IMG/VR virus record: IMGVR_UViG_3300019872_000007
Span: 1 to 38,569 of that record
Source of the DNA: a virus
Taxonomy: Duplodnaviria; Caudoviricetes
DNA: 38,569 nucleotides
Direction: 5' to 3' (one strand)
The translations under genes were made by a program, and so were the position numbers. This document shows, in pieces, positions 1-38,569 of this stretch. The notes under the pieces are model-generated. The model saw nothing but the letters and a program-made list of their open reading frames with translations. It had not been told where the DNA came from and did no database searches. How positions within the stretch are numbered: the stretch's first letter is position 1; each line of letters starts with the position of its first letter.

Positions 1-157
1 ACATGCGTCAGGGGTGCTGGCAAAAACCAAGCCACTGAAGAATATCCTGTTGCAAATCCCACTGCCCCTCTAGCTCCAGCAAGAGCACCAAATTTCATTG
101 AGTCAACTACAATATGTCGAATGGGCGTATCTCTCAAGAATTGGGTATCTTCATATT
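1..157. repeat. Terminal direct repeat / circular overlap, copy 1
   Basis: 1-157 equals 38413-38569 except G123 vs A38535. Confidence 0.97.
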
Positions 158-510: not shown

Positions 511-538
511 ACGTCTGATAATTAAGGTTATGTTGATA
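511..538 (+). other. XerC/XerD dif-like recombination site
   Basis: ACGTCTGATAA-TTAAGG-TTATGTTGATA: 11-6-11 layout with ATAA and TTATGTT flanking the spacer, as in E. coli dif GGTGCGCATAA-TGTATA-TTATGTTAAAT; intergenic. Confidence 0.65.
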
Positions 539-640
539 AAGATCTTATTTTAGTAGCTTTATAATGGGAAATAATGTAGAATTTTTTGTGACTTTTTCAT
601 ATGTTCAGTCAATTTTACAAATTTCATAGTTTTTGCATAA

Positions 641-2621: not shown

Positions 2622-3293
2622 TTATTTTAGGCAATTAATATTCAAAGTCGCCACTGTTACAGGGAATATGATTCCGACTGTATTTGGAGTCATATCCACG
2701 CTATTTGAGCTAGCATTCCGCAACTTCAGTACATCACCCGCAGCAATAGCAATCATAACTTCTCCCGTGACCTGCAAAGTGTCATCAGAACCCGCTTGAG
2801 TAAACCCTGAGATCGTTGAACCAGGAACTAGAACATTATTTAGCCATAGACCAAATGAAAAGCTTGGAATTGGAAAAGGAATAGGCTGGCTTACTTTAGC
2901 TTCTGCCCCAAAGTTAATTCTATAAACGCCGGCTTTCAGAAATTTCACGGATCCATCAACAGCCATTTTAGTCAAATCAAAATCAGCTGCTATAATAGCA
3001 TTGGTAGATTGGAATAAAACAGCATCTGCACCTGTACCAAAAGCCGCTATTACTTGTGGTGGTTGTGCCCAGATATTAGCGTAGGATACGCAGCCAACTC
3101 CCCCGTTGCCCGTGCCAGTGCAATCACAATCTTTACCTGGAGCACCTTGCATACCAGCTATTCCTTGTATGCCTTGCAACCCCATAATACCTTGTACGCC
3201 TTGTGGACCCTGTAACCCGGGAACGCCTTGCGGGCCTTGTTCACAACAGCAAGCACAATCTTTTTTGTACATATCATCTTTACACATAAACAC
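2622..3293 (-). CDS. Collagen-repeat protein with BclA-C/C1q-like head
   Basis: About 12 Gly-X-Y triplets flanked by Cys clusters, followed by beta-sandwich motifs [27 protein letters not shown]. Confidence 0.8.
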
Positions 3294-3482: not shown

Positions 3483-3575
3483 CTACTTTTTGGTATTCTC
3501 TTTCTTGATTTCTTCGTCTTCAGCTTTCTTAATCTTCTTTGCTTTTCGATGTTCTTTCCCCTTACCCTTAGACAT
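3483..3575 (-). CDS. Lys-rich 30-aa peptide
   Basis: MSKGKGKEHRKAKKIKKAEDEEIKKENTKK; GGAG RBS; fills the operon gap. Confidence 0.5.
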   Translation of the reverse strand: MSKGKGKEHRKAKKIKKAEDEEIKKENTKK

Positions 3576-4251
3576 TTTTCTCCGGTGGTTTTTCGGTTAA
3601 ACATTCCATAAATGCACCTGCAACTCCTGCATGGTCTAATCGGATGCTAGGATCTACCCATATTCTGAATCCTGCCTGTCTAGCTCTACGACAAAAAACA
3701 TAATCTTCACCCCAAAATTCTCCTTCCCAAACTTCAGTATCAAATAAACAATGACCTTCAGTATGTTTCAGAGACTCTTCTTTAGGGATATAGTGTAAAT
3801 TAGGGAAGAATTCAATCATTTTTTCCAGCAGATTTCTAGTCAAAAGCATAAATCCCGCTGGGATATATTGCATCTCAAGAAGTCCTTTAGGCGAGACATC
3901 CATACGCTTATCTTCTCCGTACACTCCACGAAAAAGAAAACAACGATCTGGTCCCCTTGCGGGATATAGTGCCGCAACAAAATCCTCATCCATATTGATC
4001 ATTCTTTGCACATCTATAGGATTCCATGCAATATCTGAGTCAATGCATAACATATGCGTGCAATCAGATTCTAGAAAGGCCTTAATCAAGTCATTACGCT
4101 CACGTACAAGCAATGATCCAGAAGTATGTATCCTCATAATGGTTTCAATAGCATGGGAAGCTAAATAAAGCCGTGTATCAGCTAGTGAACAGGCATAGGA
4201 AACGTTTACTTTTCCGTCAAAAGCGGGTGTGGCGATAAATAATTTTGTCAT
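3568..4251 (-). CDS. GT-A fold glycosyltransferase-like protein
   Basis: LFIATP, RN, LCIDSD (DxD), GFMLL, GEDYVFC, IWVDP..L.H motifs. Confidence 0.8.
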   Translation of the reverse strand: MTKLFIATPAFDGKVNVSYACSLADTRLYLASHAIETIMRIHTSGSLLVRERNDLIKAFLESDCTHMLCIDSDIAWNPIDVQRMINMDEDFVAALYPARGPDRCFLFRGVYGEDKRMDVSPKGLLEMQYIPAGFMLLTRNLLEKMIEFFPNLHYIPKEESLKHTEGHCLFDTEVWEGEFWGEDYVFCRRARQAGFRIWVDPSIRLDHAGVAGAFMECLTEKPPEKNV

Positions 4252-6560: not shown

Positions 6561-7190
6561 CTATTGCACGTGTTTCCATGTTTTTCCTTGACCGACTAAA
6601 GAGATTGCCATAAAACTAACTCCATATTTTCTTGAAAGAAAGGCTTTTGTAACACCCAAAGAAAGCATTTTTCTAATTTCAGGGATATCGCTGTCTTTAA
6701 GCTTTGCAAGGGGTCTAGATTCTCCATGACACGATCTTCCTTTTTTTACACTGTCCTCACTATTCTCTTTGATAGACCCAAGCCATAAGTGCTCAGGATT
6801 CGTACAAGTCGGGTTGTCACAAGAATGACAAACTAAAAATCCTTGGGGAATATCTCCCTTATACATTTCATAGGATAATCTATGCGCTTTATAATGTTTA
6901 TTTTTTCCTGCATAAATATAAGCATATCCGTTTTTATCTAATGAATCTTTCCATCTCCAACAGCCTTTCTGCCTAATGACTTTTTCTTCAAATGAAGCTA
7001 TCATTCTTGCTCTTTTTTCTTCATCAGTAGCTGTAGGCCAAAAAAGACGTTTTTCATTTCCTTTTATCCCAAAATCACGATTTGTACATTTTTTTCCACA
7101 AAATCTTGCGTCTGGTTGCGAATCATGCCTTCTCCATTCAAACTCTCTTTCACATGTTTCACAAACTGATTTTCCTAATTTACATGCCAT
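6561..7190 (-). CDS. HNH homing endonuclease (start ATG 7190)
   Basis: CW-W, AHRLSY, VCHSCDNPTCTNPEHL...N motif; N-terminal zinc finger, C-terminal HTH; GGAGG RBS. Confidence 0.92.
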   Translation of the reverse strand: MACKLGKSVCETCEREFEWRRHDSQPDARFCGKKCTNRDFGIKGNEKRLFWPTATDEEKRARMIASFEEKVIRQKGCWRWKDSLDKNGYAYIYAGKNKHYKAHRLSYEMYKGDIPQGFLVCHSCDNPTCTNPEHLWLGSIKENSEDSVKKGRSCHGESRPLAKLKDSDIPEIRKMLSLGVTKAFLSRKYGVSFMAISLVGQGKTWKHVQ

Positions 7191-7241
7191 ATAGCCTCCT
7201 GTCATAGAGGATACATTATCATATACTGTGATTAATCACAA
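7189..7241 (-). promoter_or_regulatory. Promoter plus RBS-sequestering hairpin of the HNH gene
   Basis: TTGTGA-17-TAATGT; hairpin ATGTA.CCTCT/GGAGG.TATAT; palindrome TGTGATTAATCACA at 7227-7240. Confidence 0.5.
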
Positions 7242-15820: not shown

Positions 15821-18112
15821 TTATGCTCCAGCAGGTAATTGTTTTCCAGCTCTTCTTATATAAAGTATTTGTGCATCAATTTGAACATCACACCCTTGCT
15901 CTGGGCCGACTAATTGTGCATTGGATAATGTCCATTCTATTGTAATGAATTGTCCACGCACTGGACAAACAACCCTTTGCCATGCCTTTGAAGATTCAAG
16001 AGTTCCCAATTGAAATGTAGGAACGATAGAATTGAAAAAAGTGTCGGGCGTTTGGTTTAGAGCATCAGGAAGTTGATTCTGTGGAATTTGATTTATCGGC
16101 TCACTATCATTATAATTCAGATAAACATTACATGTTATAAATCCTTCAGCAGGATCATTACTTGTTGTATCCATTAACACATCTAAATATCCCATTTGGA
16201 TATTTTGACCTTCCTCTGCAAAATTAAACTTCTTACTGACTATGCTAAATCCATCGCGTATCGCTATTCGACCAGCACTGAAATATATTCCATCTGTAAT
16301 TACTACAGGGATATCGAATTTTCCAGTATCGGGATTATAAGTAAAAATCTGAAATATATCCTTGTCTAGGATAACAACCCCATAAATACCATTATCTAAT
16401 GCGAAAAATGGATCGGTAGCGGCTATATCAAATATTTGTATTACGTCATTTGTAAGTAAGTTATGATCATAACTTGTAACTACAACCGTATCTAAACTTC
16501 CTTGAATTCCTGTGATTGCTAGACTTACATCGTTCCCCGTTTGTACATCGAGATACTCAACAAAACCTTGCTGATTCCCTCCAATAATATCAGGTTGTAA
16601 AGCTTGTCGTTGTACCCATGTAAAGTTTAAATTTTTCCATTGATTTGACACTGATGGGCGTGGAAAATCTATCCATCGCGCCCCAAGTTGCGGTTGAAAA
16701 GTCCCAAGAGTTGTCAAGGAATCGGTAAAAATAGCCCAACTATCATTTTCATAATTATAAACTAGTCTCCGATTTGGAAACGTGATAGCATATGGCGCTT
16801 CATCGGGAAGAAAAGGGTAAGTCCAGTAGGCTAATTTCTCTATGAAATCTCTTACCCCATGAACTCTTTTAGGCCCTTCTTGAAGATTATTAAATTCAAA
16901 TATTAAATTAGGTATTTTTATATCAATACGTTCACTTTTGAAGCTGTCACATTCAACAATCCCCTTGTCACCTACACCTACAAGAGATGTATCAAACTGA
17001 ACACTGCTAAAGGTGCTCTCTGACCCGAGTTCACTATTGACGCGCTCAATCTGAAAAGGAGCAATTGATCTTCCAGTATATCGAAGTTGCCAAGTAGAAT
17101 GCTCGCAAAAGACTACCAAATTATCACGCACGAATCCAAAGGAAACAATATTTTCAGAGGTTGGGATATCTAGAAACCCTCCCTGACCGCGAATGTCATC
17201 TCTCCAGGCATTTACATTAACCGTAGTCACAATCGCACTCACATCACTAAATGGAGTTCCAATTGCCGCCCACCGAATTCTTTGAGGGTGAGGATTGTCC
17301 GTTTCTATGGTATTCCCCACTACCATTCTGCCTCTAAATGTAACCATAACCAAGGCATTAATTAAACGATCTCCAGCGGCATTGATTATTGGTGAAAAAT
17401 CGATCCACGCGCTTAATGTCGTATTGGTATATCTAATCGGATCAACAAAATTTGTTTCCCAAAATATCTTTAGAGCTCCGTCACCTACCCAGTAATTTGT
17501 TGTCCAAAAGAAATCCGAATCCGATCCCGTCCATATAGTTCCTGGAATCAACTCTTGCCATCCAGTTCCTTGAAATCGGTAAGCGTAGACTGTGTCAAAA
17601 GCCACTGTTCTTTCAGCGTTAATCCCATTTAATTCTTGCTGGGTTAGGCCCATGACAGGCAACCCGGGAAAATAATTGAAACTTATTGTGGCAGCACCCG
17701 CTCCCGCAGGCTTTGTGATGCTAATTGCGCCTGTCTGGTAATTAATTGTACCACTCCATCCAGCGTTAGGAATAAAAGTCCCATCACCAGCATCTCGAAG
17801 AATAATACCTCTAGTGATAACAACTGATCCAGCCTCAATCTCTGCGTGAGCTTCAGGAGTAATTGGAGGAACAAGAGTTGACCAAATTGTAAAGTTCCAC
17901 GTAGTTCCCGCTGGAGCATTGCCCAATGAAAGAGCTGTTAAAACTCTTCTCAATCGACCTAAAAGCTTATATCCTTGCTTTCTTTTTATTCTTTCTCGCC
18001 ATATAAAGGCATTTTCCAAAACTGGGTAGGCGTCATTAGGCAAGATAAAATTTTGCCTTGATTGCACAAGCCCCGTTTCCATGCCTGCAATGTATAGGGG
18101 AGAATAGCTCAA
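15821..18112 (-). CDS. Tail nozzle/hub protein (P22 gp10 / T7 gp12 analogue); TTG start 18112
   Basis: GGAGGT RBS 8 nt upstream of TTG, overlapping the upstream stop; beta-propeller-like (RIRW, LVVF, LVYNY...SW); size and synteny. Confidence 0.65.
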   Translation of the reverse strand: MSYSPLYIAGMETGLVQSRQNFILPNDAYPVLENAFIWRERIKRKQGYKLLGRLRRVLTALSLGNAPAGTTWNFTIWSTLVPPITPEAHAEIEAGSVVITRGIILRDAGDGTFIPNAGWSGTINYQTGAISITKPAGAGAATISFNYFPGLPVMGLTQQELNGINAERTVAFDTVYAYRFQGTGWQELIPGTIWTGSDSDFFWTTNYWVGDGALKIFWETNFVDPIRYTNTTLSAWIDFSPIINAAGDRLINALVMVTFRGRMVVGNTIETDNPHPQRIRWAAIGTPFSDVSAIVTTVNVNAWRDDIRGQGGFLDIPTSENIVSFGFVRDNLVVFCEHSTWQLRYTGRSIAPFQIERVNSELGSESTFSSVQFDTSLVGVGDKGIVECDSFKSERIDIKIPNLIFEFNNLQEGPKRVHGVRDFIEKLAYWTYPFLPDEAPYAITFPNRRLVYNYENDSWAIFTDSLTTLGTFQPQLGARWIDFPRPSVSNQWKNLNFTWVQRQALQPDIIGGNQQGFVEYLDVQTGNDVSLAITGIQGSLDTVVVTSYDHNLLTNDVIQIFDIAATDPFFALDNGIYGVVILDKDIFQIFTYNPDTGKFDIPVVITDGIYFSAGRIAIRDGFSIVSKKFNFAEEGQNIQMGYLDVLMDTTSNDPAEGFITCNVYLNYNDSEPINQIPQNQLPDALNQTPDTFFNSIVPTFQLGTLESSKAWQRVVCPVRGQFITIEWTLSNAQLVGPEQGCDVQIDAQILYIRRAGKQLPAGA

Positions 18113-19416
18113 GGGTAACCACCTCCAGAATATCCACCATAAACGCAATAGCCTTGAGTAGAATTAAAAAGCTGAAAATTAGGCTGCCCAATTTCTTCCA
18201 CACCTTGACGCTCTAAGACAAGCGCTTCCTGCCGACTAAAGCCTTCTCTTAAGCCCTCAACGCCGTCAAAGTCATTTCGATCTCTTAAAATCTCCATAGC
18301 TGCAATGTAGGCTAAATACTGCGCCCACTGATTGAGTATAGGAACCTGCGTAGAGTCATAAAATTGCACTGGCGTCAGATAGGTTTCAATCTCCACTTTG
18401 TGGATCAATTTTGGAATAGGCCTAATAGTGAATTCATTATTCCAAAATAGCATGCAATAGGGGCGCCCTGTTTGATATTGGGCTATCCAGATGGTAAATA
18501 GTTCCCCATTTCCTAAAGAAACGCCGCTGGGTAAAGCAAAATCGATTAGTCCTGTGACATAATCCACGGTGCCAATATTGGTTGGATTGAGTAGGCCTGG
18601 ATTTCCAGTATTGATATTATACATTCCTGGCAATGCAGGATTGGTGTTTTGAGCAGGGATAGAGATTACTGAATTTGGGATAAGGTATTGAAGATTCCCA
18701 TTACCATCATCGTTAATTGTTATGGGATTGCCACCAGTATCTACACCACCTATCACGACTTCTTTACTCAAAAATGGGGCAGGCAAAGTAAAAGAAAATG
18801 TCTGATTATTTGACGTCCAAGTTCCTCCAGAAACATAAGCAGAAAAATTGACTACATCAGTGCCAACCAAATTAAACGAATTCACTTGATTAGGCGTCAG
18901 AGTGATTTCATATGAGCTTCCATTTAATTCCGTTGTGCCAACAACACCTTCAATTGTTACTACAGCGCCACTCGGCAGCCCATGAGCAGTGGAAACCACT
19001 CTAACAGTGCCGAGTGGCGTCGTCAAACCTGTTAAGTCAACGCTAGTTATTGTGCCTGTTAATGAGTCTGTGCCTTGCTGAAATTTCGTTGGCCACCTAG
19101 GCCATAAATTAAAAAATTGAGTTCGATCCTTGAAAAATGACCCTAAAATCCCTTCCACATACAAGGGCGCTCTAATTCCTTGATTGAAATTAACGTCTAG
19201 TGGATATCTGTCCCTATAAGGTTCAGTAAAGAAGGTATATACTGAACGCATCTGATCCATTTTAATAGCATAAGGGAAGTCATTCAAAAGCGCATTGTTG
19301 AGGTACTCATCAATGGATGCTGTAGTCAAAATAGATTCGCTTGAGGAAGCAGTAAGTCGTCTGATCTTTCGACGCATGAAATCAACTGTTGAACTTCCTG
19401 GACCTACTGCTGACAT
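18109..19416 (-). CDS. Head-tail adaptor (P22 gp4 / T7 gp11 analogue) with inserted FCCH-like domain
   Basis: Helical N-terminus IDEYLN, IRPIP, helical C-terminus YLAYIAA; internal AHGLPSG...GTTELNG...YVSGG. Confidence 0.65.
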   Translation of the reverse strand: MSAVGPGSSTVDFMRRKIRRLTASSSESILTTASIDEYLNNALLNDFPYAIKMDQMRSVYTFFTEPYRDRYPLDVNFNQGIRAPLYVEGILGSFFKDRTQFFNLWPRWPTKFQQGTDSLTGTITSVDLTGLTTPLGTVRVVSTAHGLPSGAVVTIEGVVGTTELNGSSYEITLTPNQVNSFNLVGTDVVNFSAYVSGGTWTSNNQTFSFTLPAPFLSKEVVIGGVDTGGNPITINDDGNGNLQYLIPNSVISIPAQNTNPALPGMYNINTGNPGLLNPTNIGTVDYVTGLIDFALPSGVSLGNGELFTIWIAQYQTGRPYCMLFWNNEFTIRPIPKLIHKVEIETYLTPVQFYDSTQVPILNQWAQYLAYIAAMEILRDRNDFDGVEGLREGFSRQEALVLERQGVEEIGQPNFQLFNSTQGYCVYGGYSGGGYP

Positions 19417-20314: not shown

Positions 20315-20857
20315 TTATATACTTATGTCCAGAAGCTTTCCGTGGGTATGTCTATGACACGTCTTACATAGCCAAATGATTTCAAGTCGCTTCTCATAGT
20401 CTTCATGATGGGCTTCAGGCTTACATTCTTTACAACACTTCTCACACAGAGAAGGTCTAATTAATTTCCCTCTAGAAATTTGTTTATAAACATAATTTCT
20501 AGCTAATTCTTTTGGTCTATCCTGAAGCCTTCTCGCCTTCTCTGTTTCTGCAAATCTTTCTGGATTATTTTTTCTCCAGTTTTTTACAGATTCATTGTTG
20601 ACTTTTCTTCGCTCAGGTGTTCGACGCCTTTCATTTATTTTATCCTTATTTTTTTCTAAGGATCTCCTGGTCTGTTCTTTTACTTTTTCAGGATTCCTTT
20701 CCCTCCAGGAAGAAACGAGAAGTCTTCGTTTCTCTTTCCCTTCTGGTGTTTGATTCCTTCTCTTGCAATATGCCTTCCAACACTCCTTACAGTCATCATG
20801 ATTTTTGTAAAAATCTGAGACTTCTTTATTGCTTTCACACACCTTGCATTTTTTCAT
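20315..20857 (-). CDS. Zinc-finger HNH endonuclease (start ATG 20857)
   Basis: KCKVC...FY...CKEC N-terminus; CEKC...AHHEDY...WLCKTCH. Confidence 0.8.
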   Translation of the reverse strand: MKKCKVCESNKEVSDFYKNHDDCKECWKAYCKRRNQTPEGKEKRRLLVSSWRERNPEKVKEQTRRSLEKNKDKINERRRTPERRKVNNESVKNWRKNNPERFAETEKARRLQDRPKELARNYVYKQISRGKLIRPSLCEKCCKECKPEAHHEDYEKRLEIIWLCKTCHRHTHGKLLDISI

Positions 20858-20858
20858 A

Positions 20859-20910
20859 ATGGTATCCTCCGTTTTATTAGAGAATACCATATTGCTATTT
20901 CACTGAAAAC
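20859..20910 (-). promoter_or_regulatory. RBS-sequestering hairpin with overlapping extended -10
   Basis: ATGGTATTCTCT-N8-GGAGGATACCAT; TG-G-TATTCT lies in the 5' arm. Confidence 0.65.
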
Positions 20911-21958: not shown

Positions 21959-22927
21959 TTAGCTTGGGGTAGTTGTAGTGCAGTTTAGGCCAGATATCCA
22001 GTTTTGGTTAGTGATTGCTCTCGCAATCGCAAACTTAGCATATAACTGGCTGTTCTGCGCTACAGATGAAACTACCCAAGGTGGTCTATAGCCGATAACA
22101 GCTGTATAGTTATTCTGTTCGATCTTAGCCGCTGCTTCTAGACCGTACATAGGAACGGTATAGACCGTACGCCCAAGCATAGAAATCCCCGGTGTCTTTG
22201 CAGCTTTTGATGACACGAAGAATCGGAATCGTGAGATCGAGCAATACTCTTCAGGGCGCAAACCTTCCTGAGACGGGTAAGCATTCTTGAGCAATACGCC
22301 CTGAACTTTCTGAAGATCGTTCGTCAAATTAGTATTTGCCAAAGCTATGAAGGCGTCTCGGGTTGGGCCTGTTGAAAACTTATCCATCGCATCTATGCTT
22401 ACAAGCATTGTGCGAGCATCATTACCAAGCAAAATGGTTTCAATATTGTTAATATCATTGAGACTTAAGTTGCTAGGCTGATCCCCGTTACCACCACCAG
22501 TTGCATTGATGTAAGATACGCTTGAGGCGAAAAGATCACGCATTAGCAGGTCTTCTTTTTCACGAAGCCATTGACCAAGCAATGCAGTGAACTTTGTTAG
22601 CGTCTTACTATTTTCATAGAGGACAACTTGTTCATTGGTAATTATTGACTTTGCATAGATCTCCATCGTCGCATCGATATCTGTGCGTTGTGGCACTTCA
22701 GAAGCTGGATCAACGCCTGAACCATCAAGTTGGCCACCATCCGTAGATAGGCGCTCAAATCGAGACATACGTGTAGTCTTGCCGATATAGGCTTCTGCAT
22801 GGTGTAAATCTACACCGAAGCTATGAATCAAATTAAACATTGGCGTGCTGAGCAAGTCTTCCGCAGCTTGCACGGGCAGCTCAGGCGCAAAGTTATTTAT
22901 ATTGGTGATCCCTGTGGGGAATGACAT
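21959..22927 (-). CDS. Major capsid protein, N4-gp56-like (start ATG 22927)
   Basis: GKTTRMSRFERL, TDIDATMEIY, EDLLMRD, YPSQ...EEYCS..RFRF; GAGGTG RBS; synteny. Confidence 0.85.
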   Translation of the reverse strand: MSFPTGITNINNFAPELPVQAAEDLLSTPMFNLIHSFGVDLHHAEAYIGKTTRMSRFERLSTDGGQLDGSGVDPASEVPQRTDIDATMEIYAKSIITNEQVVLYENSKTLTKFTALLGQWLREKEDLLMRDLFASSVSYINATGGGNGDQPSNLSLNDINNIETILLGNDARTMLVSIDAMDKFSTGPTRDAFIALANTNLTNDLQKVQGVLLKNAYPSQEGLRPEEYCSISRFRFFVSSKAAKTPGISMLGRTVYTVPMYGLEAAAKIEQNNYTAVIGYRPPWVVSSVAQNSQLYAKFAIARAITNQNWISGLNCTTTTPS

Positions 22928-22931
22928 GTTT

Positions 22932-23040
22932 GCACCTCGCAAAACAGGTTGATATGTATCCTAGCGGCGAACTAGTAATATCTGCCTGCACTGGCGAGGT
23001 GCGATTCAGCCTGGGCTAGCGAAGCCCCGATCAGCTGAGT
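22932..23040 (-). promoter_or_regulatory. Structured 5' leader of the capsid mRNA
   Basis: Three hairpins with YTCGCYR loops; 9-nt anti-SD. Confidence 0.65.
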
Positions 23041-26336: not shown

Positions 26337-28370
26337 TTAGCCCACTTGGGCAGTTTGTGGCTGGTTAGCCGTTTTCATCGCTTGTGCTAGGTCAAATGCG
26401 CTCTTAAGCTGATTGAATTGCACATCTTCAAGCTCCATAGCTAGTTTGACAAGATTTAGATCTGATTCCATCATTTTATGTTCGGCAGTAGCATATAAAT
26501 CTTCAATCTTAGCGACACGTTCTTGGGCTGAAACCATTAGATCTTTCTCTCGCGCCATGTCTACTTTAGCTTTTGCAAAAGATTCCATTATTTTAGCATT
26601 ATCCATTTTTTCTTTTGCTTGGGCTTCTGCCTGTTGAGCTTGCATTTGTTGTTGTTGGGCCTCTTCCATATCCTGCATGACTTGCTTTTTATTCGTTATA
26701 ATTGCGGCGCGAATAATGGATTTGTCTGCAATGGCCATGCCGATTTCTTTGAAGTGCAATAGCTGCTGTAATTCTGTTTGTCTTTGTGTTGCTGAGTAGT
26801 TGCCCTCTTCGACCCTAAGACCATATTTCTGGCTATGTGATGTCCAGAATCGTGGATCTGCTTCATGACCGAGAATGTTTCGTATCTTACCTTTAGAAAA
26901 GTTCTTTCGAATTGCCTGCAGTCGTATCTTACCGTACAACCTTTGTGTGTAATCAATCTTATCAAAGATAGTCTGCAATGTGGTGAGTCCTGCGCCCTGT
27001 CGAAGCATTGAAAGTATGCCGGATTTGTCATCAGTCGCCGAGCCGAGAAGTTCTTCATTTACACCACATATCTTTGTTATATCTTCTGCTAAGCTTTGTG
27101 AAAGCTCAAGAAGGCTTTGAGGGATCGCTGCGGCTTCAATCCTTTGGATCTCATTTGGAAGGTGGCCTGCCTTTAGTGGTATTAAAAAGCCTTGTCCAGA
27201 CTGCCTGAAAGCTTTGGGGTCTGTCACCGCATCGATCGGATATATCCAACCTGAATTTATCTGAGATTGGAGAATTTCAAGCTCAATAACTTTACGCATA
27301 TTGTATAGAAACTGAGCATCTCTAAGGTTTCTAATCATACCCATGCACCGCCATGCCGGAGATGTTACATCTGGCTCATAATAGCATATTGAAGGTACAC
27401 ACGGGTACGAATCAATATTAAGCAAATTAGGGCCATTATAGACTTCTTTGTCCCCTAAAGAAATGCAAAGCTTGACAGTTGGAATATAAGTTTTTTTAAC
27501 CTCTAACCAAGGTTGCTCCGCTAAAACCCGATCAAGCATATCTTCCGGATCTTGATCATCGGGTTCCCACTCTGTCGCTTCCCCAGTTTTTGGATCTAAT
27601 ATGATCGTGGCGAGCCTGGAATCCATATAATGGAATTCGTCATATGTAAATAACTTGTTCAAGGCGACATTCTGAAGCTCTGCTTGGACGGGAAAACGAC
27701 CGTCTTTCATCCCACCAGGATTCATTTTTTCAATTTCATTCGCGTAGCCTGGCAATAATCGTTTAGCTCCTTCTTTAGATGTCCATCGACGACGTTGAAT
27801 ACCATTACAGTCGGAAAGATCTTGCTTACGAAAATATTGATCGATTAGAAAATTATTATATGAAACCATATCGTCAAAAATATCCCCTGAAATAGGATCA
27901 AGGGTGTAGTCCATATACATCCATAGCAATGTCATGCCTGTGTCACATGAGCCCTCAAATGCTTCTGAGAGGTATTCTTGGAAACCAGATCGATCTTCAC
28001 AATATTTTAAGCAAGCATTGTAATCATCTGCTATCTGATCATCATTTTCCAGCACAGGAATAACAAGAGTAGACTTGCGATTTCGCCTTTGAAAACCACA
28101 GACCATATTGATATGGCGTCTAATTAGATTGAAAAAGAATCGGTAGGAATTTTGATTGTAATTATTACCCGCAACTTGGCTGTAGAGGGATTGATCTCCC
28201 ACTTTGAACCGCTTGTCTATAAAGCCTTGAGCCCACCATTGGCTATTGCCGGGATAATTTGCCTGGTAGAAATCTTCTTTACGCTGTTTTAGATGCTTGG
28301 AGGCTTGATCTGTGGGATCGATATACCCCGAAGTATTTGTGACGAAGCCGCCACGGTCATAGCTACCCAT
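26337..28370 (-). CDS. Portal protein (P22-like)
   Basis: FNLIRRHINMVCGFQR, GMIRNLRDAQ..YN.R, ICGVNEELLG, SG...RQ..G, Q-rich barrel tail; follows TerL. Confidence 0.88.
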   Translation of the reverse strand: MGSYDRGGFVTNTSGYIDPTDQASKHLKQRKEDFYQANYPGNSQWWAQGFIDKRFKVGDQSLYSQVAGNNYNQNSYRFFFNLIRRHINMVCGFQRRNRKSTLVIPVLENDDQIADDYNACLKYCEDRSGFQEYLSEAFEGSCDTGMTLLWMYMDYTLDPISGDIFDDMVSYNNFLIDQYFRKQDLSDCNGIQRRRWTSKEGAKRLLPGYANEIEKMNPGGMKDGRFPVQAELQNVALNKLFTYDEFHYMDSRLATIILDPKTGEATEWEPDDQDPEDMLDRVLAEQPWLEVKKTYIPTVKLCISLGDKEVYNGPNLLNIDSYPCVPSICYYEPDVTSPAWRCMGMIRNLRDAQFLYNMRKVIELEILQSQINSGWIYPIDAVTDPKAFRQSGQGFLIPLKAGHLPNEIQRIEAAAIPQSLLELSQSLAEDITKICGVNEELLGSATDDKSGILSMLRQGAGLTTLQTIFDKIDYTQRLYGKIRLQAIRKNFSKGKIRNILGHEADPRFWTSHSQKYGLRVEEGNYSATQRQTELQQLLHFKEIGMAIADKSIIRAAIITNKKQVMQDMEEAQQQQMQAQQAEAQAKEKMDNAKIMESFAKAKVDMAREKDLMVSAQERVAKIEDLYATAEHKMMESDLNLVKLAMELEDVQFNQLKSAFDLAQAMKTANQPQTAQVG

Positions 28371-28544: not shown

Positions 28545-29831
28545 TTAGAAATATCCCCCACCCATTTGAGGATTCATATATCCATAACCATCGTCATCAT
28601 AAACTTTACGTCGCAACTGTTCAATTGTGAGTTGTGAATCAGGGTTGCCAAAGTCAGCCGACAATAAAAATGGCGTGCAAGCATATCTAAGGGAATCTAC
28701 CGAATGATCGTCTTTCTTAATGGGCTTATCTTCTCCCCTATCTTGAGCCTTCGGACACCATGCATAGCTTTGCAACTGCTCAATTAAATTCTTACAGCTC
28801 TTATGTATGACAATATTCTTACCAGATATGAATTTGCTCATTGTTTTGATGCCAAGGAGCACATCATTATTGGCGTCATTAACTGGAAGATCTTCATTGC
28901 GCAAGGCTATCTTAAATGAAGCCGCTGCTGGGTCTACATAAATGCAAGTGACATTTTTATGTGCAACGAAGCGTTTTATCTCTGTTACTAGTTGTGCATC
29001 GGTCTTAGGGATGCCTGTCTTGGAGGAATCAAAATAATATTCTTCTTCAACTCTCACTTGTGGCCATTGTTTTGGGGAGACAGCTAATAGCACGGCGGAA
29101 GTCGGGTTGGTGGTACCATAGTCAATACCACAAAGATAGTAGCTGGGTGATGGGAAAGGATTAACAAATTGATTATCATGATCAAAGTCAGGGAAGATTG
29201 CGCCTGTCGCTTGGCACCATTCCCCTAGAATGAATCGTTTATACCACATCCCCGAAAAGGAAGATTTTATGCTCTGCTTGTATTTCTCATCCAGTACCGG
29301 ATTATCATCTAGATTAAAATCCCAATGAATGAGATCAAGATCTCCAGCCCGATCAATATATTGCTTCTTTAGAAAATGCGATGGTCCTTCAGGGTTGGCG
29401 GTAGCAAATAGCTGAGCACCAGGAACACTAAGCCGAGTCTCTAGCATCTTCCAAAAAGCTTCAGGTATACAAGTGGCTTCGTCTACGTAGGCATAAGCTA
29501 AAGTAGAGCCCTGAATAGTAGTAACCGCAGATACATCCGGGGCACCAACGAAATAGACGTCGCGACCATATAGCGTTACTTTATTACACATAGGTGAAGG
29601 CGCCGGGTGGCCCAACATACGATAAATAGTAGTAATGACATTTCTTTGTATTGATCCTCGGTTAACGCCAATGATCATGGCATCGCCTGGGACACCATGC
29701 TTTAAACGATCAAGGAATTTACGGATGCTTGAAAAAGTTTTTCCAGATCGTACAGCGCCAACCCAGATATTGAAACGATGAGTTGATTCAAGATAAGATT
29801 GATTTTGCTTATCACTAGTTACAAAGGACAT
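28545..29831 (-). CDS. terL: Terminase large subunit, PBSX-like (start ATG 29831)
   Basis: Walker A GAVRSGKT, Walker B YVDE, TANP, GIDYGTTNP, VDPAA, DDHSVDSLRY. Confidence 0.95.
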   Translation of the reverse strand: MSFVTSDKQNQSYLESTHRFNIWVGAVRSGKTFSSIRKFLDRLKHGVPGDAMIIGVNRGSIQRNVITTIYRMLGHPAPSPMCNKVTLYGRDVYFVGAPDVSAVTTIQGSTLAYAYVDEATCIPEAFWKMLETRLSVPGAQLFATANPEGPSHFLKKQYIDRAGDLDLIHWDFNLDDNPVLDEKYKQSIKSSFSGMWYKRFILGEWCQATGAIFPDFDHDNQFVNPFPSPSYYLCGIDYGTTNPTSAVLLAVSPKQWPQVRVEEEYYFDSSKTGIPKTDAQLVTEIKRFVAHKNVTCIYVDPAAASFKIALRNEDLPVNDANNDVLLGIKTMSKFISGKNIVIHKSCKNLIEQLQSYAWCPKAQDRGEDKPIKKDDHSVDSLRYACTPFLLSADFGNPDSQLTIEQLRRKVYDDDGYGYMNPQMGGGYF

Positions 29832-30273
29832 CAGCCTCTTTTTTAAGCTTGGCTTTAACAAGCATAAGCTCGTTCTCTAGCTCTTTAATTTGCTCATCTT
29901 TAACATTTATTTCATCTTTACTCAAAGCTTTTCTAGATTCCCTTTCAATTTGAGCGTCTGCATCAGAATCTTCCCTTTTCCTTAGATCTTTAAAGTATAC
30001 TCTTTGCCATCTTTGTTTAAGTGATGGTTCAATTGGAGAATCCTTTTTTAGATACTTAAATCCTACTAATTTAAGTGCTTTTTCATAATAGGGGAAAAAC
30101 TCTGGAGCTACTTGCATAGTATCCCATTGTTTGTCAGTATAACTTTTGTGTATAGAATACCATTGAGATAGATGAATAGGATCATTTTCAATGATCCATT
30201 GTAGCATTTCCTCCCCAAGTTCAATCATTTCATCGGGAGAAAGAGAAACTGTTCTGGGACGTCCACCTGCCAT
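29815..30273 (-). CDS. Terminase small subunit (putative)
   Basis: MAGGRP start, helical, immediately upstream of and overlapping terL. Confidence 0.7.
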   Translation of the reverse strand: MAGGRPRTVSLSPDEMIELGEEMLQWIIENDPIHLSQWYSIHKSYTDKQWDTMQVAPEFFPYYEKALKLVGFKYLKKDSPIEPSLKQRWQRVYFKDLRKREDSDADAQIERESRKALSKDEINVKDEQIKELENELMLVKAKLKKEADVLCN

Positions 30274-32687: not shown

Positions 32688-32957
32688 TTAAAGTTTTCGC
32701 ATTATATCTTCGATATCTGAATGTGCCTTATGATATTTTTCGAGATTATCAAAATAAAATTTAGCAAACCCAATTAAAGATTCCTTTTGAGATCCAAAAG
32801 GGCCATAATTTTGCCATCCGTCATCATTGAAAAAAAATAAATTGTCTTTCTTCCAAAATGTAATGGTCACCTGTGCAAATTTAATTTCGTCTACAAATTC
32901 ACATCCGTCGCAAGGCGGCAATTCTTTACTGCATTCAAACCAAATATTTTCCATCAC
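32688..32957 (-). CDS. Hypothetical protein (DUF551-like N-terminus)
   Basis: WFECSKELPP; GTGA overlap with the loader gene. Confidence 0.55.
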   Translation of the reverse strand: MMENIWFECSKELPPCDGCEFVDEIKFAQVTITFWKKDNLFFFNDDGWQNYGPFGSQKESLIGFAKFYFDNLEKYHKAHSDIEDIMRKL

Positions 32958-33538
32958 TGCCTTAAATCATAGCCATCAAGGATTTCAATAATACAGTTTT
33001 CTTTAGAAAAAAGCCGACTTGAAACTCTTTCATGAAAAAATTCCTTGAATTCTTTGATTGAGAAATTACTGGTTACGATTGTGGGTTTCATGGTGTTGTA
33101 TCGTTCATCGATGGCATCAAAAATAATTTCTTTCCTCCAGTCGTTGAGGCCTGTACTTCCGATATCATCAAGCATCACAAAGTCATCATCGATTAAATAT
33201 TGCAATGCTTCTAGATAGTCGCCTTTGCAGTCGTCCATCGAGGATCGAATTCGTTTTAAAAGCTCCGATTCATTCCAATATCGAACACTTTTATATTTTG
33301 TGAAAATGGCAGCAAACATTGCAGCACAAAAATAAGTTTTTCCAATCCCGGCATTTCCTAAATAAACTAAAAAATTGTGTCTACCGTTGATCCATTGTAA
33401 AATCCGCTCTGCCGAAGCATCTCCCCCAAATTGGATTTTTGACAAGGAGGCTCCGCGGTATCTTTTTCCGAAGATTTGTTCTTGCCTGTCGGCGATGAGT
33501 TTTTCGAGTCTTTCTCTGAAGTTGAGTTCTTCGAACAT
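32954..33538 (-). CDS. DnaC/IstB-like AAA+ helicase loader
   Basis: GNAGIGKT, LDDIG, IDERY, TSN, ERVSSRL, G.DLR; AAGGA RBS. Confidence 0.92.
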   Translation of the reverse strand: MFEELNFRERLEKLIADRQEQIFGKRYRGASLSKIQFGGDASAERILQWINGRHNFLVYLGNAGIGKTYFCAAMFAAIFTKYKSVRYWNESELLKRIRSSMDDCKGDYLEALQYLIDDDFVMLDDIGSTGLNDWRKEIIFDAIDERYNTMKPTIVTSNFSIKEFKEFFHERVSSRLFSKENCIIEILDGYDLRQ

Positions 33539-34197
33539 GGTTTTTCCTTAAGCTGTTGATTTTGTTCTATTAAACGATTCTTTTTGATGATTGAGTCAAT
33601 ATAGTTTACAGGATTTTCGATATTTCCGGAATAACGAATGTAGGACGGCCAAGCTTTTTCGATTTCCAGAGTAGTCCAATCTTTATCCAGTTTTTCGCGA
33701 GCGAAAAATAAGTCGTCTTTAGAAAAGTTATGAACATTTCCACAATCCGTCGCGCGCGCACACTCGGGCGCGTCATCATCATTTTCTTTAATCCTTTCTT
33801 TCTTATATGTATTGTTTTCCAAATGAGGGGGGTACCGCGTTGGTACTAGGGGGGGTACCACGTTGGTACTAGGGGGGGGTACCGAATTGGTACTACCCCC
33901 CCCCTCATGTACAACTAGTTCATAATAAACCTCTTCTGTACCTAACACGCCAACTATTTCCTTACAAACCAACCCTTTTTCAATTAAAGAATTTAATGCG
34001 GTGCATATATTTGTTCTATTAGATCCAGTCAGGTTTTGAAAGGTTGAAATACTTATTTTATCTTTTTTTCGATGCCAACCAAAAGTTTTTCTCATGATAA
34101 CAAGCAAAACCTTAAGTTCGACTTCTCCAAGTTTGGGAAGCCATTCATCAAAAAGATCGTTAGGCGTCTGAGTAAAGTTTGGTGCGGGAATTCTCAT
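33367..34197 (-). CDS. Lambda O-like replication initiator
   Basis: FTQTPNDLFD...LKVLLVIMRKTFGW.KK.D.IS winged helix; internal iterons; upstream of the loader. Confidence 0.88.
   Translation of the reverse strand: MRIPAPNFTQTPNDLFDEWLPKLGEVELKVLLVIMRKTFGWHRKKDKISISTFQNLTGSNRTNICTALNSLIEKGLVCKEIVGVLGTEEVYYELVVHEGGGSTNSVPPPSTNVVPPLVPTRYPPHLENNTYKKERIKENDDDAPECARATDCGNVHNFSKDDLFFAREKLDKDWTTLEIEKAWPSYIRYSGNIENPVNYIDSIIKKNRLIEQNQQLKEKPCSKNSTSEKDSKNSSPTGKNKSSEKDTAEPPCQKSNLGEMLRQSGFYNGSTVDTIF
33781..33904. repeat. Replication origin: three iterons plus an AT-rich tract
   Basis: G6/G7/G8-TACC-N3-TTGGTACTA at 33827, 33849 and 33872, then C9; AT-rich 33781-33825. Confidence 0.85.
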
Positions 34198-34391
34198 TAG
34201 CAAGCCCCCCGAAAAATATTGAAATAAAAATTAGGGATTGTGCTAAAATTGGGATTAGGAATATATTGCATGCATTGTCTCCTGATTTGTGTTGTGTAAT
34301 TGGGATTCATGAGCCATCCTATGAAAGTGGGTGGCAATTGTTTTGTTGAATACATTGTCTCCTTTTTTACGTGAAAGTTAATGGGATTCAT
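34197..34391 (-). CDS. Hypothetical leader ORF with nested starts
   Basis: TAATG-coupled to the initiator; three RBS-ATG units. Confidence 0.4.
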   Translation of the reverse strand: MNPINFHVKKETMYSTKQLPPTFIGWLMNPNYTTQIRRQCMQYIPNPNFSTIPNFYFNIFRGAC

Positions 34392-34687: not shown

Positions 34688-34915
34688 TCAGCCAACTTTC
34701 TGTTTGCTGAAACCTTCAGGCACTTTCGTTTCTTCAAAAACCGTTCCCTCTTTTACCCAACCTTCTGTTGCAAATTCAATCAGCTTTAAGGTCTTCTTAG
34801 AGGGCTGTCTTTTTCTATTCAAGATTGATGAAATGTAACCTACATGAAATCCCGCTCTTTCGGCAAATTCTTTTACAGACATTTCTTTATAAAATAGATA
34901 TTCCTTAATATTCAT
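34688..34915 (-). CDS. Cro-like XRE-family HTH regulator
   Basis: MSVKEFAERAG...YISSILNRKRQPS...IEFATEGWV; AAGGAG RBS. Confidence 0.88.
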   Translation of the reverse strand: MNIKEYLFYKEMSVKEFAERAGFHVGYISSILNRKRQPSKKTLKLIEFATEGWVKEGTVFEETKVPEGFSKQKVG

Positions 34916-35643: not shown

Positions 35644-36288
35644 ATGAATCAGTCACCACAGCTAGACCAATTATTTACAGCCTTGGCGAAAGCTCAGGGC
35701 GAAATGACTGGAGCCGCCAAAGATTGTGCGAATCCGTTTTTTAAATCTCGCTATGCAGATCTCTCTAGCATCTGGACCGCATGCCGGGAGCCTTTAAGCA
35801 AATATGGCCTTACAGTCCTTCAAGGCCCGTATGAACAAGATGGACGAATGTACATAGAAACAATGCTAGGACATTCATCGGGGCAGTTTGTAAGATCTTA
35901 TCTACCCATAAATGTTAAAATCGAGGGAAAAGGTGCAAATGAACTGCAAGCTTTAGGGGCGGCAATCACTTACTTGAGAAGATTTTGCTTATCAGCATTA
36001 GTTGGTGTGGCTCCTGATGACGATAATGATGGCAATGAATCGAACTATAAAGCTCGGCCTAAACAAGAACCTGTCTCTGTTCCTCAAGTTACTCCCAGTC
36101 AAGTTGCAGAGATTCGCTCTATGCTTGCGTCTTGTGATAATGCCTACATTGCGAAAATCATGGACTGGCTTGGAACGTATAAGATCACTAATCTTGAGAC
36201 AATGCCTGTCACTTTCTACTCTACAATTAAGACTCGGGTTCAGGCTCATCTTGATGTGCCACAAACCGCAATAGTGGGGGATGCGTGA
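35644..36288 (+). CDS. erf: ERF-family single-strand annealing protein
   Basis: NPFFKSRYADL, HSSGQ, QALGAAITYLRRF.L, DDDNDGN. Confidence 0.95.
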   Translation: MNQSPQLDQLFTALAKAQGEMTGAAKDCANPFFKSRYADLSSIWTACREPLSKYGLTVLQGPYEQDGRMYIETMLGHSSGQFVRSYLPINVKIEGKGANELQALGAAITYLRRFCLSALVGVAPDDDNDGNESNYKARPKQEPVSVPQVTPSQVAEIRSMLASCDNAYIAKIMDWLGTYKITNLETMPVTFYSTIKTRVQAHLDVPQTAIVGDA

Positions 36289-36425: not shown

Positions 36426-36609
36426 AATAAAAATACTATCCCATAGGGGAATTATAATTGATGACTCAGAATACCCACCAACAGCACATATCGATAAAAA
36501 ATATATCAGAGAAAAAATTGAAAAAGTTTTGAGAAATTGGCATTTATGTGTAATGGTATCGCCCGATGATTTTAATCAAGTACTTGATGAATGTGTGGTG
36601 GATTTATGA
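36415..36609 (+). CDS. Hypothetical protein
   Basis: 64 aa; ATGA overlap with the exonuclease gene. Confidence 0.55.
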   Translation: MKIEIKILSHRGIIIDDSEYPPTAHIDKKYIREKIEKVLRNWHLCVMVSPDDFNQVLDECVVDL

Positions 36610-37466
36610 AAATCATTGAATTAACTCAGAATACTCCCGAATGGCTTGAATTTCGAAAGAATAAATTAGGTGCCAGCGATGCTCCCATCATAATGGGTGA
36701 TAGTCCGTGGTGTTCACCGTCTCAATTATGGGAAAGAAAAATAGGTATAACACCCGATCAAACAGAAAACTTTGCAATGCGTGAAGGCAAAGAATTAGAG
36801 CCAGTAGCTAGAGAAAGCTTCAATAAGATTATGGGTAAGGTATATACACCTTACGTTGTACAACATGAAACCTTCGAATGGATGATAGCTTCATTAGACG
36901 GACTATCATTATGCGAAAAATGTGCTGTTGAAATAAAGTGTCCTGGCCGAGAAGCTCACCTTTCGGCTCTTGCTGGGAAAGTCCCCGCATATTATATCCC
37001 TCAATTGCAACATCAGCTTGCAGTTACTGGGCTAGATATGATATACTACTACAGTTATGACGGGAAGCAAAACGCTTGCATCGAAGTGCATCGTGATGAA
37101 AAAATGATTGATCATATGATCAAAGAGGAATTAAAATTCTATAATTGCCTAATAAAAGCAATTCCTCCAGATCTGACCGATCAAGATTATAAAGTAAGGT
37201 TTGATGGAAAATGGGAAAATGCAACAGCTTATTGGCTGAGATCGCAGGCAAATTTAAAAGATGCCGAATTCCACGAAAAGAGGGCAAGAGAACAAATAAT
37301 AGCTCTTTCAGAATCTCGGAACTCGAAAGGTTGCGGGGTGAAAGTCCAAAAGATTATGCGTCAAGGGTGTGTCAACTACTCCGCAATTCCTGCATTAGAG
37401 GGGATCGACTTGGATCAATATAGGAAGCCGACAAGTGAATCGTGGAGGATTACGTTAGATGGATAA
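36606..37466 (+). CDS. YqaJ/lambda-exonuclease family recombination nuclease
   Basis: QNTPEWLEFR, GASD, G.ELE, ASLDG, EIKCP, YYIPQLQHQL. Confidence 0.95.
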   Translation: MKIIELTQNTPEWLEFRKNKLGASDAPIIMGDSPWCSPSQLWERKIGITPDQTENFAMREGKELEPVARESFNKIMGKVYTPYVVQHETFEWMIASLDGLSLCEKCAVEIKCPGREAHLSALAGKVPAYYIPQLQHQLAVTGLDMIYYYSYDGKQNACIEVHRDEKMIDHMIKEELKFYNCLIKAIPPDLTDQDYKVRFDGKWENATAYWLRSQANLKDAEFHEKRAREQIIALSESRNSKGCGVKVQKIMRQGCVNYSAIPALEGIDLDQYRKPTSESWRITLDG

Positions 37467-38168: not shown

Positions 38169-38569
38169 TCAAGTAAGTTGTTTATGCTGGTTTTTAAAAT
38201 ATGAATACGCAATCCTTAACTGATTCTGGCTAGGATTATGAACATTCAAGACAGATGTGACAACGATAGATAAAATTGAAGGCAGATTTTTTCCAATTTC
38301 ACTAATTTTACCCTCGATTCTTTCTACGCGTCTTTGAGTCAATAAGTCATATTTACAGCTATTGCTCATAAAGAATCCTGTTGAAAAAACAAACCCAGTT
38401 ATAGCCCCAATTACATGCGTCAGGGGTGCTGGCAAAAACCAAGCCACTGAAGAATATCCTGTTGCAAATCCCACTGCCCCTCTAGCTCCAGCAAGAGCAC
38501 CAAATTTCATTGAGTCAACTACAATATGTCGAATAGGCGTATCTCTCAAGAATTGGGTATCTTCATATT
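38169..38569 (-). CDS. 3' part of junction-spanning membrane protein
   Basis: Gly/Ala-rich bilobed hydrophobic region followed by a short coiled coil. Confidence 0.7.
   Translation of the reverse strand, partial: YEDTQFLRDTPIRHIVVDSMKFGALAGARGAVGFATGYSSVAWFLPAPLTHVIGAITGFVFSTGFFMSNSCKYDLLTQRRVERIEGKISEIGKNLPSILSIVVTSVLNVHNPSQNQLRIAYSYFKNQHKQLT
38413..38569. repeat. Terminal direct repeat / circular overlap, copy 2
   Basis: Matches 1-157 with one mismatch; an ORF reads through the junction. Confidence 0.97.

Follow-up and report, generated by a model that had tools for sequence, protein, structure and literature searches.

A dif-like site in a closed tailed-phage genome

The stretch of DNA analysed here (38,569 nucleotides, hereafter the window) is the closed 38.4-kb genome of a tailed phage, in which a 157-bp terminal direct repeat with one mismatch (positions 1-157, plus strand, pairing with 38413-38569) marks a circular assembly. 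On the minus strand lie a major capsid protein (21959-22942; its nearest ESM Atlas clusters are capsid proteins, and it is 80-95% identical across the close clade), a P22-like portal (26337-28370; PF16510, E 2.5e-67), a PBSX-type large terminase (28545-29861; PHROGs and Pfam), a DnaC-like helicase loader (32954-33538; PHROGs and Pfam), a lambda O-like replication initiator (33367-34203; PF04492 and PHROGs), and, ahead of O, a short Cro/CI-type HTH protein (34688-34915; PF01381) with 41% identity to an HTH in a chlamydial prophage discussed below (G324). The plus strand encodes an Erf-like single-strand annealing protein (35644-36288; PF04404 and PHROGs), the likely source of circles and multimers, and a YqaJ/RecE-like exonuclease (36591-37466; PF09588) located ~1.5 kb from the dif-like site on the circle, while RusA is also among the window's genes (PHROGs and Pfam). 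No peptidase-bearing CI, ParA, or plasmid Rep was found in the window with PHROGs and Pfam, and no ParA among 61 representatives of the relatives' protein clusters. The virion gene block further holds two free-standing HNH/endonuclease genes (6561-7205 and 20315-20890) and a protein with an E1_FCCH domain match (18109-19416), and a collagen-repeat tail protein shows a weak BclA_C match (2622-3293).

Between two minus-strand open reading frames (ORFs; 272-487 and 641-961), an intergenic 28-mer on the plus strand (511-538) reads ACGTCTGATAA / TTAAGG / TTATGTTGATA, and both the sequence and the 11-6-11 dif layout are as the first-pass annotation of this DNA had described them. An intact XerC-type arm (511-521) is followed by a 6-bp spacer (522-527), compared below with 30 sampled host spacers, and by an XerD-type arm (528-538) whose inner part is intact when set against supplement 2 of Kono et al. 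2011 (PMC3025954), the host profile, and the family's sites. Among the 26 rows returned from that supplement, the left arm is identical to the arms of Protochlamydia amoebophila and Chlamydophila abortus, and the same arm also occurs in Syntrophobacter, Desulfococcus, and Acidobacterium. The core pattern by itself is weak, with one match in the window and one also in 9 of 100 shuffles. Scored with a Chlamydiota dif profile, for which 30 chromosomal sites on long contigs supplied the arms, the window's site reaches 32.5 bits, against 9.5 bits for the next-best window site and a maximum of 18.3 bits in 200 shuffled windows; the 30 hosts themselves score 21.5-34.9 bits, in-sample and with inner columns fixed by the pattern that found them. 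The background comparison proposed at first pass came out in favor of the site, and the Chlamydiota profile suggests a chlamydial host. A relative (G001) carries a dif identical to the window site at 25 of 28 bases, with a left flank only 38-44% identical. Overall, the locus has the properties of a dif-type core site, i.e., 11-6-11 arms matching host-phylum dif, a non-coding position, a single copy, and arms conserved in relatives, among which 2 of 17 placed dif sites overlap an ORF of at least 70 aa. It resembles the chromosomal dif of Chlamydiae in layout, left arm, intact inner right arm, single copy, and intergenic position, as far as the Kono et al. 2011 supplement represents these (PMC3025954), while it lies on a 38-kb phage rather than at a chromosome terminus and its spacer is off the host consensus.

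Regarding a recombinase that might act here, neither an integrase nor a resolvase was found among the 68 window ORFs with PHROGs or Pfam, NCBIfam likewise returned none, and six-frame searches of the window with PF00589, PF00239, and PF07508 were empty, whereas control searches were positive in 14, 13, and 6 of 14 genomes. Outside the virion block, every stop-to-stop frame of at least 150 codons coincides with an ORF scanned with PHROGs and Pfam. A hidden integrase was rejected on these searches, and the closed genome has no recognisable tyrosine or serine recombinase, as had been claimed; in having no recombinase of its own by PHROGs, Pfam, and six-frame searches, the phage is like an IMEX. 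Because of the site's sequence, its conservation, and the lack of a phage recombinase, its reading as a predicted substrate of host XerC/XerD is well supported.

The first-pass annotation had also placed a degenerate second dif copy at 554-582 (plus strand), which scores -0.9 bits and is background, with 12 window positions equally good with a 7-nt spacer. The window therefore has one dif site only, and the suggested swapping of accessory cassettes falls away, as it would need a genuine second site; nor do pairs of dif-like sites flank a cassette here, as they would in a pdif module. Beyond the core site, a non-coding block common to the window and G001 (611-652; 37 of 42 bases identical) holds a 14-bp palindrome, separated from the XerD arm by exactly 95 bp; of 35 family sites, 2 have a palindrome at this distance, and of 30 host sites none does. 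The palindrome resembles an ARG box, and candidate roles for the block are those of an operator or an accessory site. A cer-type accessory site was considered and rejected: the palindrome is on the wrong (XerD) side and recurs at that distance in just those two family sites, and no accessory region for PepA with ArgR or ArcA lies beside the XerC arm.

Exchange of dif with a serine resolvase gene among relatives

The phage belongs to a large family, with 4,685 terminase matches among 7,998 scored candidates, the best 120 of which are 66-89% identical. A first sample of 30 near-complete records was picked by terminase or capsid, independently of dif; these records and the window have at most 4% of 21-mers in common and are not near-copies. 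With a threshold of at least 18 bits and spacers of 6 or 7 bp, dif was called in 9 of the 30, and the protein cluster most clearly linked to its absence was a small serine recombinase (Resolvase + HTH_7). One record had both elements, eight dif only, 18 the resolvase only, and three neither (p 2.2e-4), and nine later records gave zero, four, four, and one, respectively. For the combined 39 relatives the counts are 1 with both, 12 with dif only, 22 with the resolvase only, and 4 with neither (p 5e-6, uncorrected for kinship). In a quick portal tree of 42 rows, six of them picked by the dif pattern, the dif and resolvase labels each change at least 6 times on branches with support of at least 95, and only 2 of 56 resolvase loci also show a dif site. 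Conservation in related phages, a check proposed at first pass, held for the arms, which are kept where the site is present; the site as such was found in only 13 of 39 relatives.

The exceptions are few. The sole relative in the set of 39 with both elements (G007) has a weak dif site, and another (G017), with a dif score of 15.3 and hence below the cut-off, was counted as resolvase only. One relative with neither element (G444) carries a tyrosine recombinase, and no recombinase was found in the other three (G008, G440, and G465, with PF00589 applied to the first two). Terminase matches in six genomes were dropped from the family (G267, G241, G283, G040, G316, and G129), with no family portal or capsid in the stretches examined, and two more stand outside the counts, one with the terminase and two tail genes only (G165:C25) and one with the terminase and RusA only and a GC content of 61% (G021). 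No protein cluster was clearly tied to dif as an activator gene, the best being RusA-like (11/19 vs 3/23, uncorrected p 0.003), and neither an accessory sequence nor an activator that could replace FtsK was found among the family sites and linked protein clusters. Two family dif sites have 7-bp spacers with intact arms, in G443 (L435) and L421, at 32.9 and 29.6 bits.

The relatives' enzyme is a Resolvase + HTH_7 protein of 155-225 aa, 59-60% identical to plasmid recombinases, and in 16 of 19 genomes its gene is found upstream of the terminase, at a distance of 1.3-8.8 kb. Serine recombinases this small resolve or invert DNA and do not integrate it. A tail-fibre invertase was considered and rejected on gene position and on the absence of long inverted repeats, with none of at least 22 bp within 8 kb in 31 genomes and no invertible segment, although by sequence the enzyme is indistinguishable from invertases. 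A search of 300 bp upstream and 330 bp downstream of the resolvase genes revealed no res site. The serine resolvases and invertases of Tn3/gamma-delta, Tn552 (Bin3), and Gin are alike in representing the type of gene that the relatives carry instead of dif, and they differ in that the window has no such gene and that neither a res site nor an invertible segment was found in the relatives.

Across relatives, dif occupies many different intergenic places, which bears on whether the site recombines at all. A site without a recombination role, for instance a promoter or operator look-alike, an Xer or FtsK decoy, or a host-derived relic, would suit the AT-rich intergenic setting and the presence in a minority of relatives; with arms conserved while spacers are free, at many unrelated positions, and with the exclusion between the site and a recombinase gene, we consider this very improbable. 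A further reading, that the site is mainly a crossover point between co-infecting phage genomes in the manner of pdif-like module shuffling, draws on several junction signals. Between the window and G001, identity rises from 38-44% left of the site to 57-88% over the next 110 bp. An independent freshwater run (X3) contains a 446-bp contig that matches 93-535 exactly and breaks off inside the XerD arm, and a second contig whose DNA before 503 is different. Such signals may reflect crossovers at dif, whether between phages or with a host. However, the X3 signal consists of single contigs of a relative, each genome has a single site and no paired sites, and module shuffling leaves the dif-resolvase exclusion unexplained, so that as the site's main function it is improbable. 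Separately, G001 is a mosaic, with a capsid only 33% identical to that of the window but YqaJ at 71%, Erf at 61%, and dif-adjacent accessory genes at 41-64%, and thus early and accessory modules move between distant virion types.

A probable chlamydial host and spacer variation

The pattern CTGATAA-N6-TTATGT occurs, mostly singly, in 261 of 301 Chlamydiota genomes (about 25 for the reversed control, by visual count), compared with 14 of 151 Patescibacteria, and it is contained in 14 of 14 Chlamydiae dif sites in the Kono 2011 supplement, two of which have the window's exact left arm (PMC3025954). Stand-alone contigs of 31-40 kb with family portal and capsid were binned in Chlamydiota (G037, G038, G039, and G435), and one family contig in a Chlamydiota bin is circular (G039:C102), though such binning is no proof of host or of circular maintenance. 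A capsid homolog was found in 7 of 400 Chlamydiota genomes. The three closest genome-bin matches are labelled Bacteroidetes and Paceibacterota, none of them Chlamydiota, protein matches in the ESM Atlas gave no host, and GenBank phages and PLSDB held no close relatives. On balance, the host is probably an environmental member of Chlamydiota. In the literature covered, phages named for Chlamydia are microviruses (PMC3091885), and published accounts also mention two chlamydial plasmids with phage genes (PMC7846284) and unclassified viruses predicted for Chlamydiales (PMC12644861); the present data point to tailed phages of Chlamydiota, one prophage at dif among them, and suggest the dif site as a host tag for uncultured phages.

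Several other elements in Chlamydiota bins deserve mention. A capsid gene 70% identical to that of a family member lies on a long chlamydial contig (G211:C4:208707-209366), with no family genes within 1.5 kb. Further dif-like sites were seen in G267:C2:63629, G089:C7, G174:C65, G240:C9 and C22, G332, and G095:C10, some perhaps on plasmids, and in G095:C10 two such sites 793 bp apart resemble a pdif module. Two myovirus-like elements also carry a dif-like site, one of 98 kb (G219:C3) and one circular, of 73.5 kb (G298:C52), the latter encoding ParA, a primase-helicase, a tyrosine recombinase, AbiE, Fic, and a heavy-metal resistance block; it has in common with the window the ORF at 3568-4251 (52% identity) and a tail fibre (30%).

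Unlike the arms, the spacers vary widely. Across 50 phage sites the inner arms are intact in 41 and 47, respectively, while there are 42 different spacers, and only 8 of the 50 have a spacer equal to one of the 30 sampled host spacers, compared to 19 of 30 in host-to-host comparison. None of the 30 host spacers is identical to the window's TTAAGG, which is one change (position 5, on the XerD side) from one of them; G at this position occurs in 17 of the 50 phage sites and in 1 of the 30 from hosts. Five Chlamydiota bins contain a phage contig of its own with dif (G037, G039, G298, G219, and G291, two of which belong to another phage lineage), and in all five the phage spacer and the presumed chromosomal spacer disagree at 2-4 positions. 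From Xer chemistry, recombination of a site with itself should tolerate any spacer. With these 50 natural variants, the homology requirements of chlamydial Xer recombination can be put to the test.

Proposed multimer resolution and possible integration at dif

The first-pass annotation had proposed that host XerCD serve for integration at dif, for resolving dimers of an episome, or for cassette swapping, and among these three uses dimer resolution is best supported, because dif exchanges with a serine resolvase among relatives; integration was seen for the distant relative G324 only. We therefore favor, with a probability of roughly 0.55, the reading that the site would be the phage's own multimer-resolution site, with host XerC/XerD acting on a circular, non-integrated genome. 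Two observations underlie it: a site matching Chlamydiota chromosomal dif in a genome with no recognisable recombinase, and relatives with either dif or a small serine resolvase gene. Mechanistically, Erf/YqaJ recombination would circularise the genome after injection, and dimers would arise during O/DnaC theta replication. Host XerC and XerD would then recombine the two identical sites on a dimer to give monomers, which would be the resolvase's job elsewhere, and the non-host spacer would keep self-by-self recombination but disfavor full recombination with the chromosome. In a host that is probably an environmental member of Chlamydiota, the phage might be kept as a circle, or the site might act in lytic replication alone. 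On the simplest reading, a 28-bp site and a resolvase gene solve one problem, i.e., multimers of a replicating circle, which phage-plasmids are described as facing (PMC7969092). That dif stands in for a resolvase gene is comparative evidence on the job of dif in tailed phages without an integrase, which could not be read from the site by itself. Counting against resolution are the 4 of 39 relatives with neither element, in three of which no recombinase was found, and the one with both.

Integration is a strong alternative that we nevertheless regard as less probable: the site would be an attP, and the phage an IMEX integrating reversibly at chlamydial dif via host XerC/XerD in the manner of VGJ-phi and gokushoviruses (pairing on the XerC side only), with the resolvase-bearing relatives being plasmids. 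The dif-resolvase exclusion would also be expected if dif meant "integrate" and the resolvase "stay a plasmid". The strongest case is a 137,359-bp chlamydial contig (G324:C1). The one intact dif of its bin lies at 41,988, and 35.7 kb further on, at 77,699, comes a direct repeat that shares its spacer but has two altered bases in the XerC arm; the interval (41988-77720) holds YqaJ, a capsid homolog (22% identical to the window's), and a P22-type portal. No PF00589 match was found on this contig and no PF00239 match in the bin. At the left junction, three ORFs without family match lie left of the first site, and family-like small ORFs lie to its right; just inside this end, an addiction-module antidote and a DUF29 gene were also seen. 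With this prophage, integration at chlamydial dif is shown to be within reach of the wider group. Its right end, however, is known from a 22-base match alone, its terminase differs from the window's, and the integrated form has a crippled arm and identical end spacers, whereas the window has two intact arms and an off-consensus spacer.

The spacers speak to both sides of this question. The first spacer half was seen in a host for 23 of 34 phage sites (random 23%), and the window's single change from a host spacer, on the XerD side, is the pattern described for the VGJ-phi attP (PMC5357621). Precedents for integration exist in LME-1 (PMC9765430, PMC12407071) and in gokushoviruses, whose dif sites with variable spacers are described as integrating (PMC7062461). 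In 4 of the 5 bins, however, the co-binned free forms differ from the host spacer on the XerC side too. The search for homologous prophages or split reads suggested at first pass yielded the distant relative between dif repeats but no integrated close relative: no host junction was found in the 395 loci examined, and in both possible source runs a contig crosses the site unbroken. Resolution and integration may also both occur at one site.

For the multimer-resolution reading, the state of the genome matters. Contigs of the close clade do not exceed genome length: none of 80 metagenome contigs is longer than 40,153 bp, none of 120 portal clusters is longer than 39,944 bp, and 119 of the best 120 terminase clusters are at most 41,420 bp, the remaining one having a 76,118-bp contig and an IMG/VR record (G460) that is resolvase-positive. 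Chlamydial chromosomes are, we infer, rarely assembled in metagenomes, and short contigs are therefore weak evidence for a free state. Because no ParA or CI was found, the phage may exist in a multicopy carrier state or the site may serve early lytic replication alone. Phage-plasmids have plasmid replicase and partition genes (PMC7969092), whereas the window has O/DnaC replication genes and no ParA. More tentatively, there could be a wide family of tailed phages of environmental Chlamydiae that are partition-less circles swapping a host-dif mimic, a serine resolvase, and a tyrosine recombinase, and in which a member becomes a prophage at dif when the mimic's spacer matches that of the host and its XerC arm is crippled. 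If true, a single element, tuned in two ways, would give resolution sites and IMEX attachment sites, and such phages would be genetic tools for Chlamydiota.

Known systems differ from the window phage in instructive ways. Sites such as cer and psi and the Cre/lox system of P1 have the same proposed job, multimer resolution of an extrachromosomal circle (PMC5357621, PMC7969092), whereas the window has no XerC-side accessory region, no phage recombinase, and neither ParA nor plasmid Rep. That a tailed phage uses dif is less new than the first-pass annotation implied, as LME-1, a short-tailed Legionella phage, already integrates at Legionella dif; as would be the case for the window phage, it has an intracellular, amoeba-associated host and uses host dif/Xer (PMC9765430, PMC12407071). 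LME-1 differs in a 22-bp att identical to the host site, a single recombinase (XerL), and stable integration, while the window's site is of the XerC/XerD type, both of its arms are whole, and none of the close relatives was seen integrated. Dif-integrating microviruses are also already in print (PMC7062461). We found no report of dif-resolvase exchange or of tailed chlamydial phages at dif in the literature covered, which included few subscription papers.

VGJ-phi, TLC-phi, GGI, and dif-bearing gokushoviruses likewise have no integrase and one dif-like site, but they are filamentous, satellite, island, or ssDNA elements, unlike this tailed phage (PMC5357621, PMC7062461). The VGJ-phi spacer departs from the host's on the XerD side, while in TLC and GGI it is the XerD arm that is degenerate (PMC5357621). 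Neither arm of the window site is degenerate, and the G324 prophage has a degenerate XerC arm at its right repeat, the reverse of the TLC pattern. The TLC/GGI-type combination of a host-equal spacer and a degenerate XerD arm is absent from the window, as judged against 30 sampled host spacers from which the actual host's may differ. Finally, two small viral contigs unrelated to the window phage (L031 and L051) each carry two identical inverted dif-like sites ~100 bp apart, resembling a CTX-type fold-back attP.
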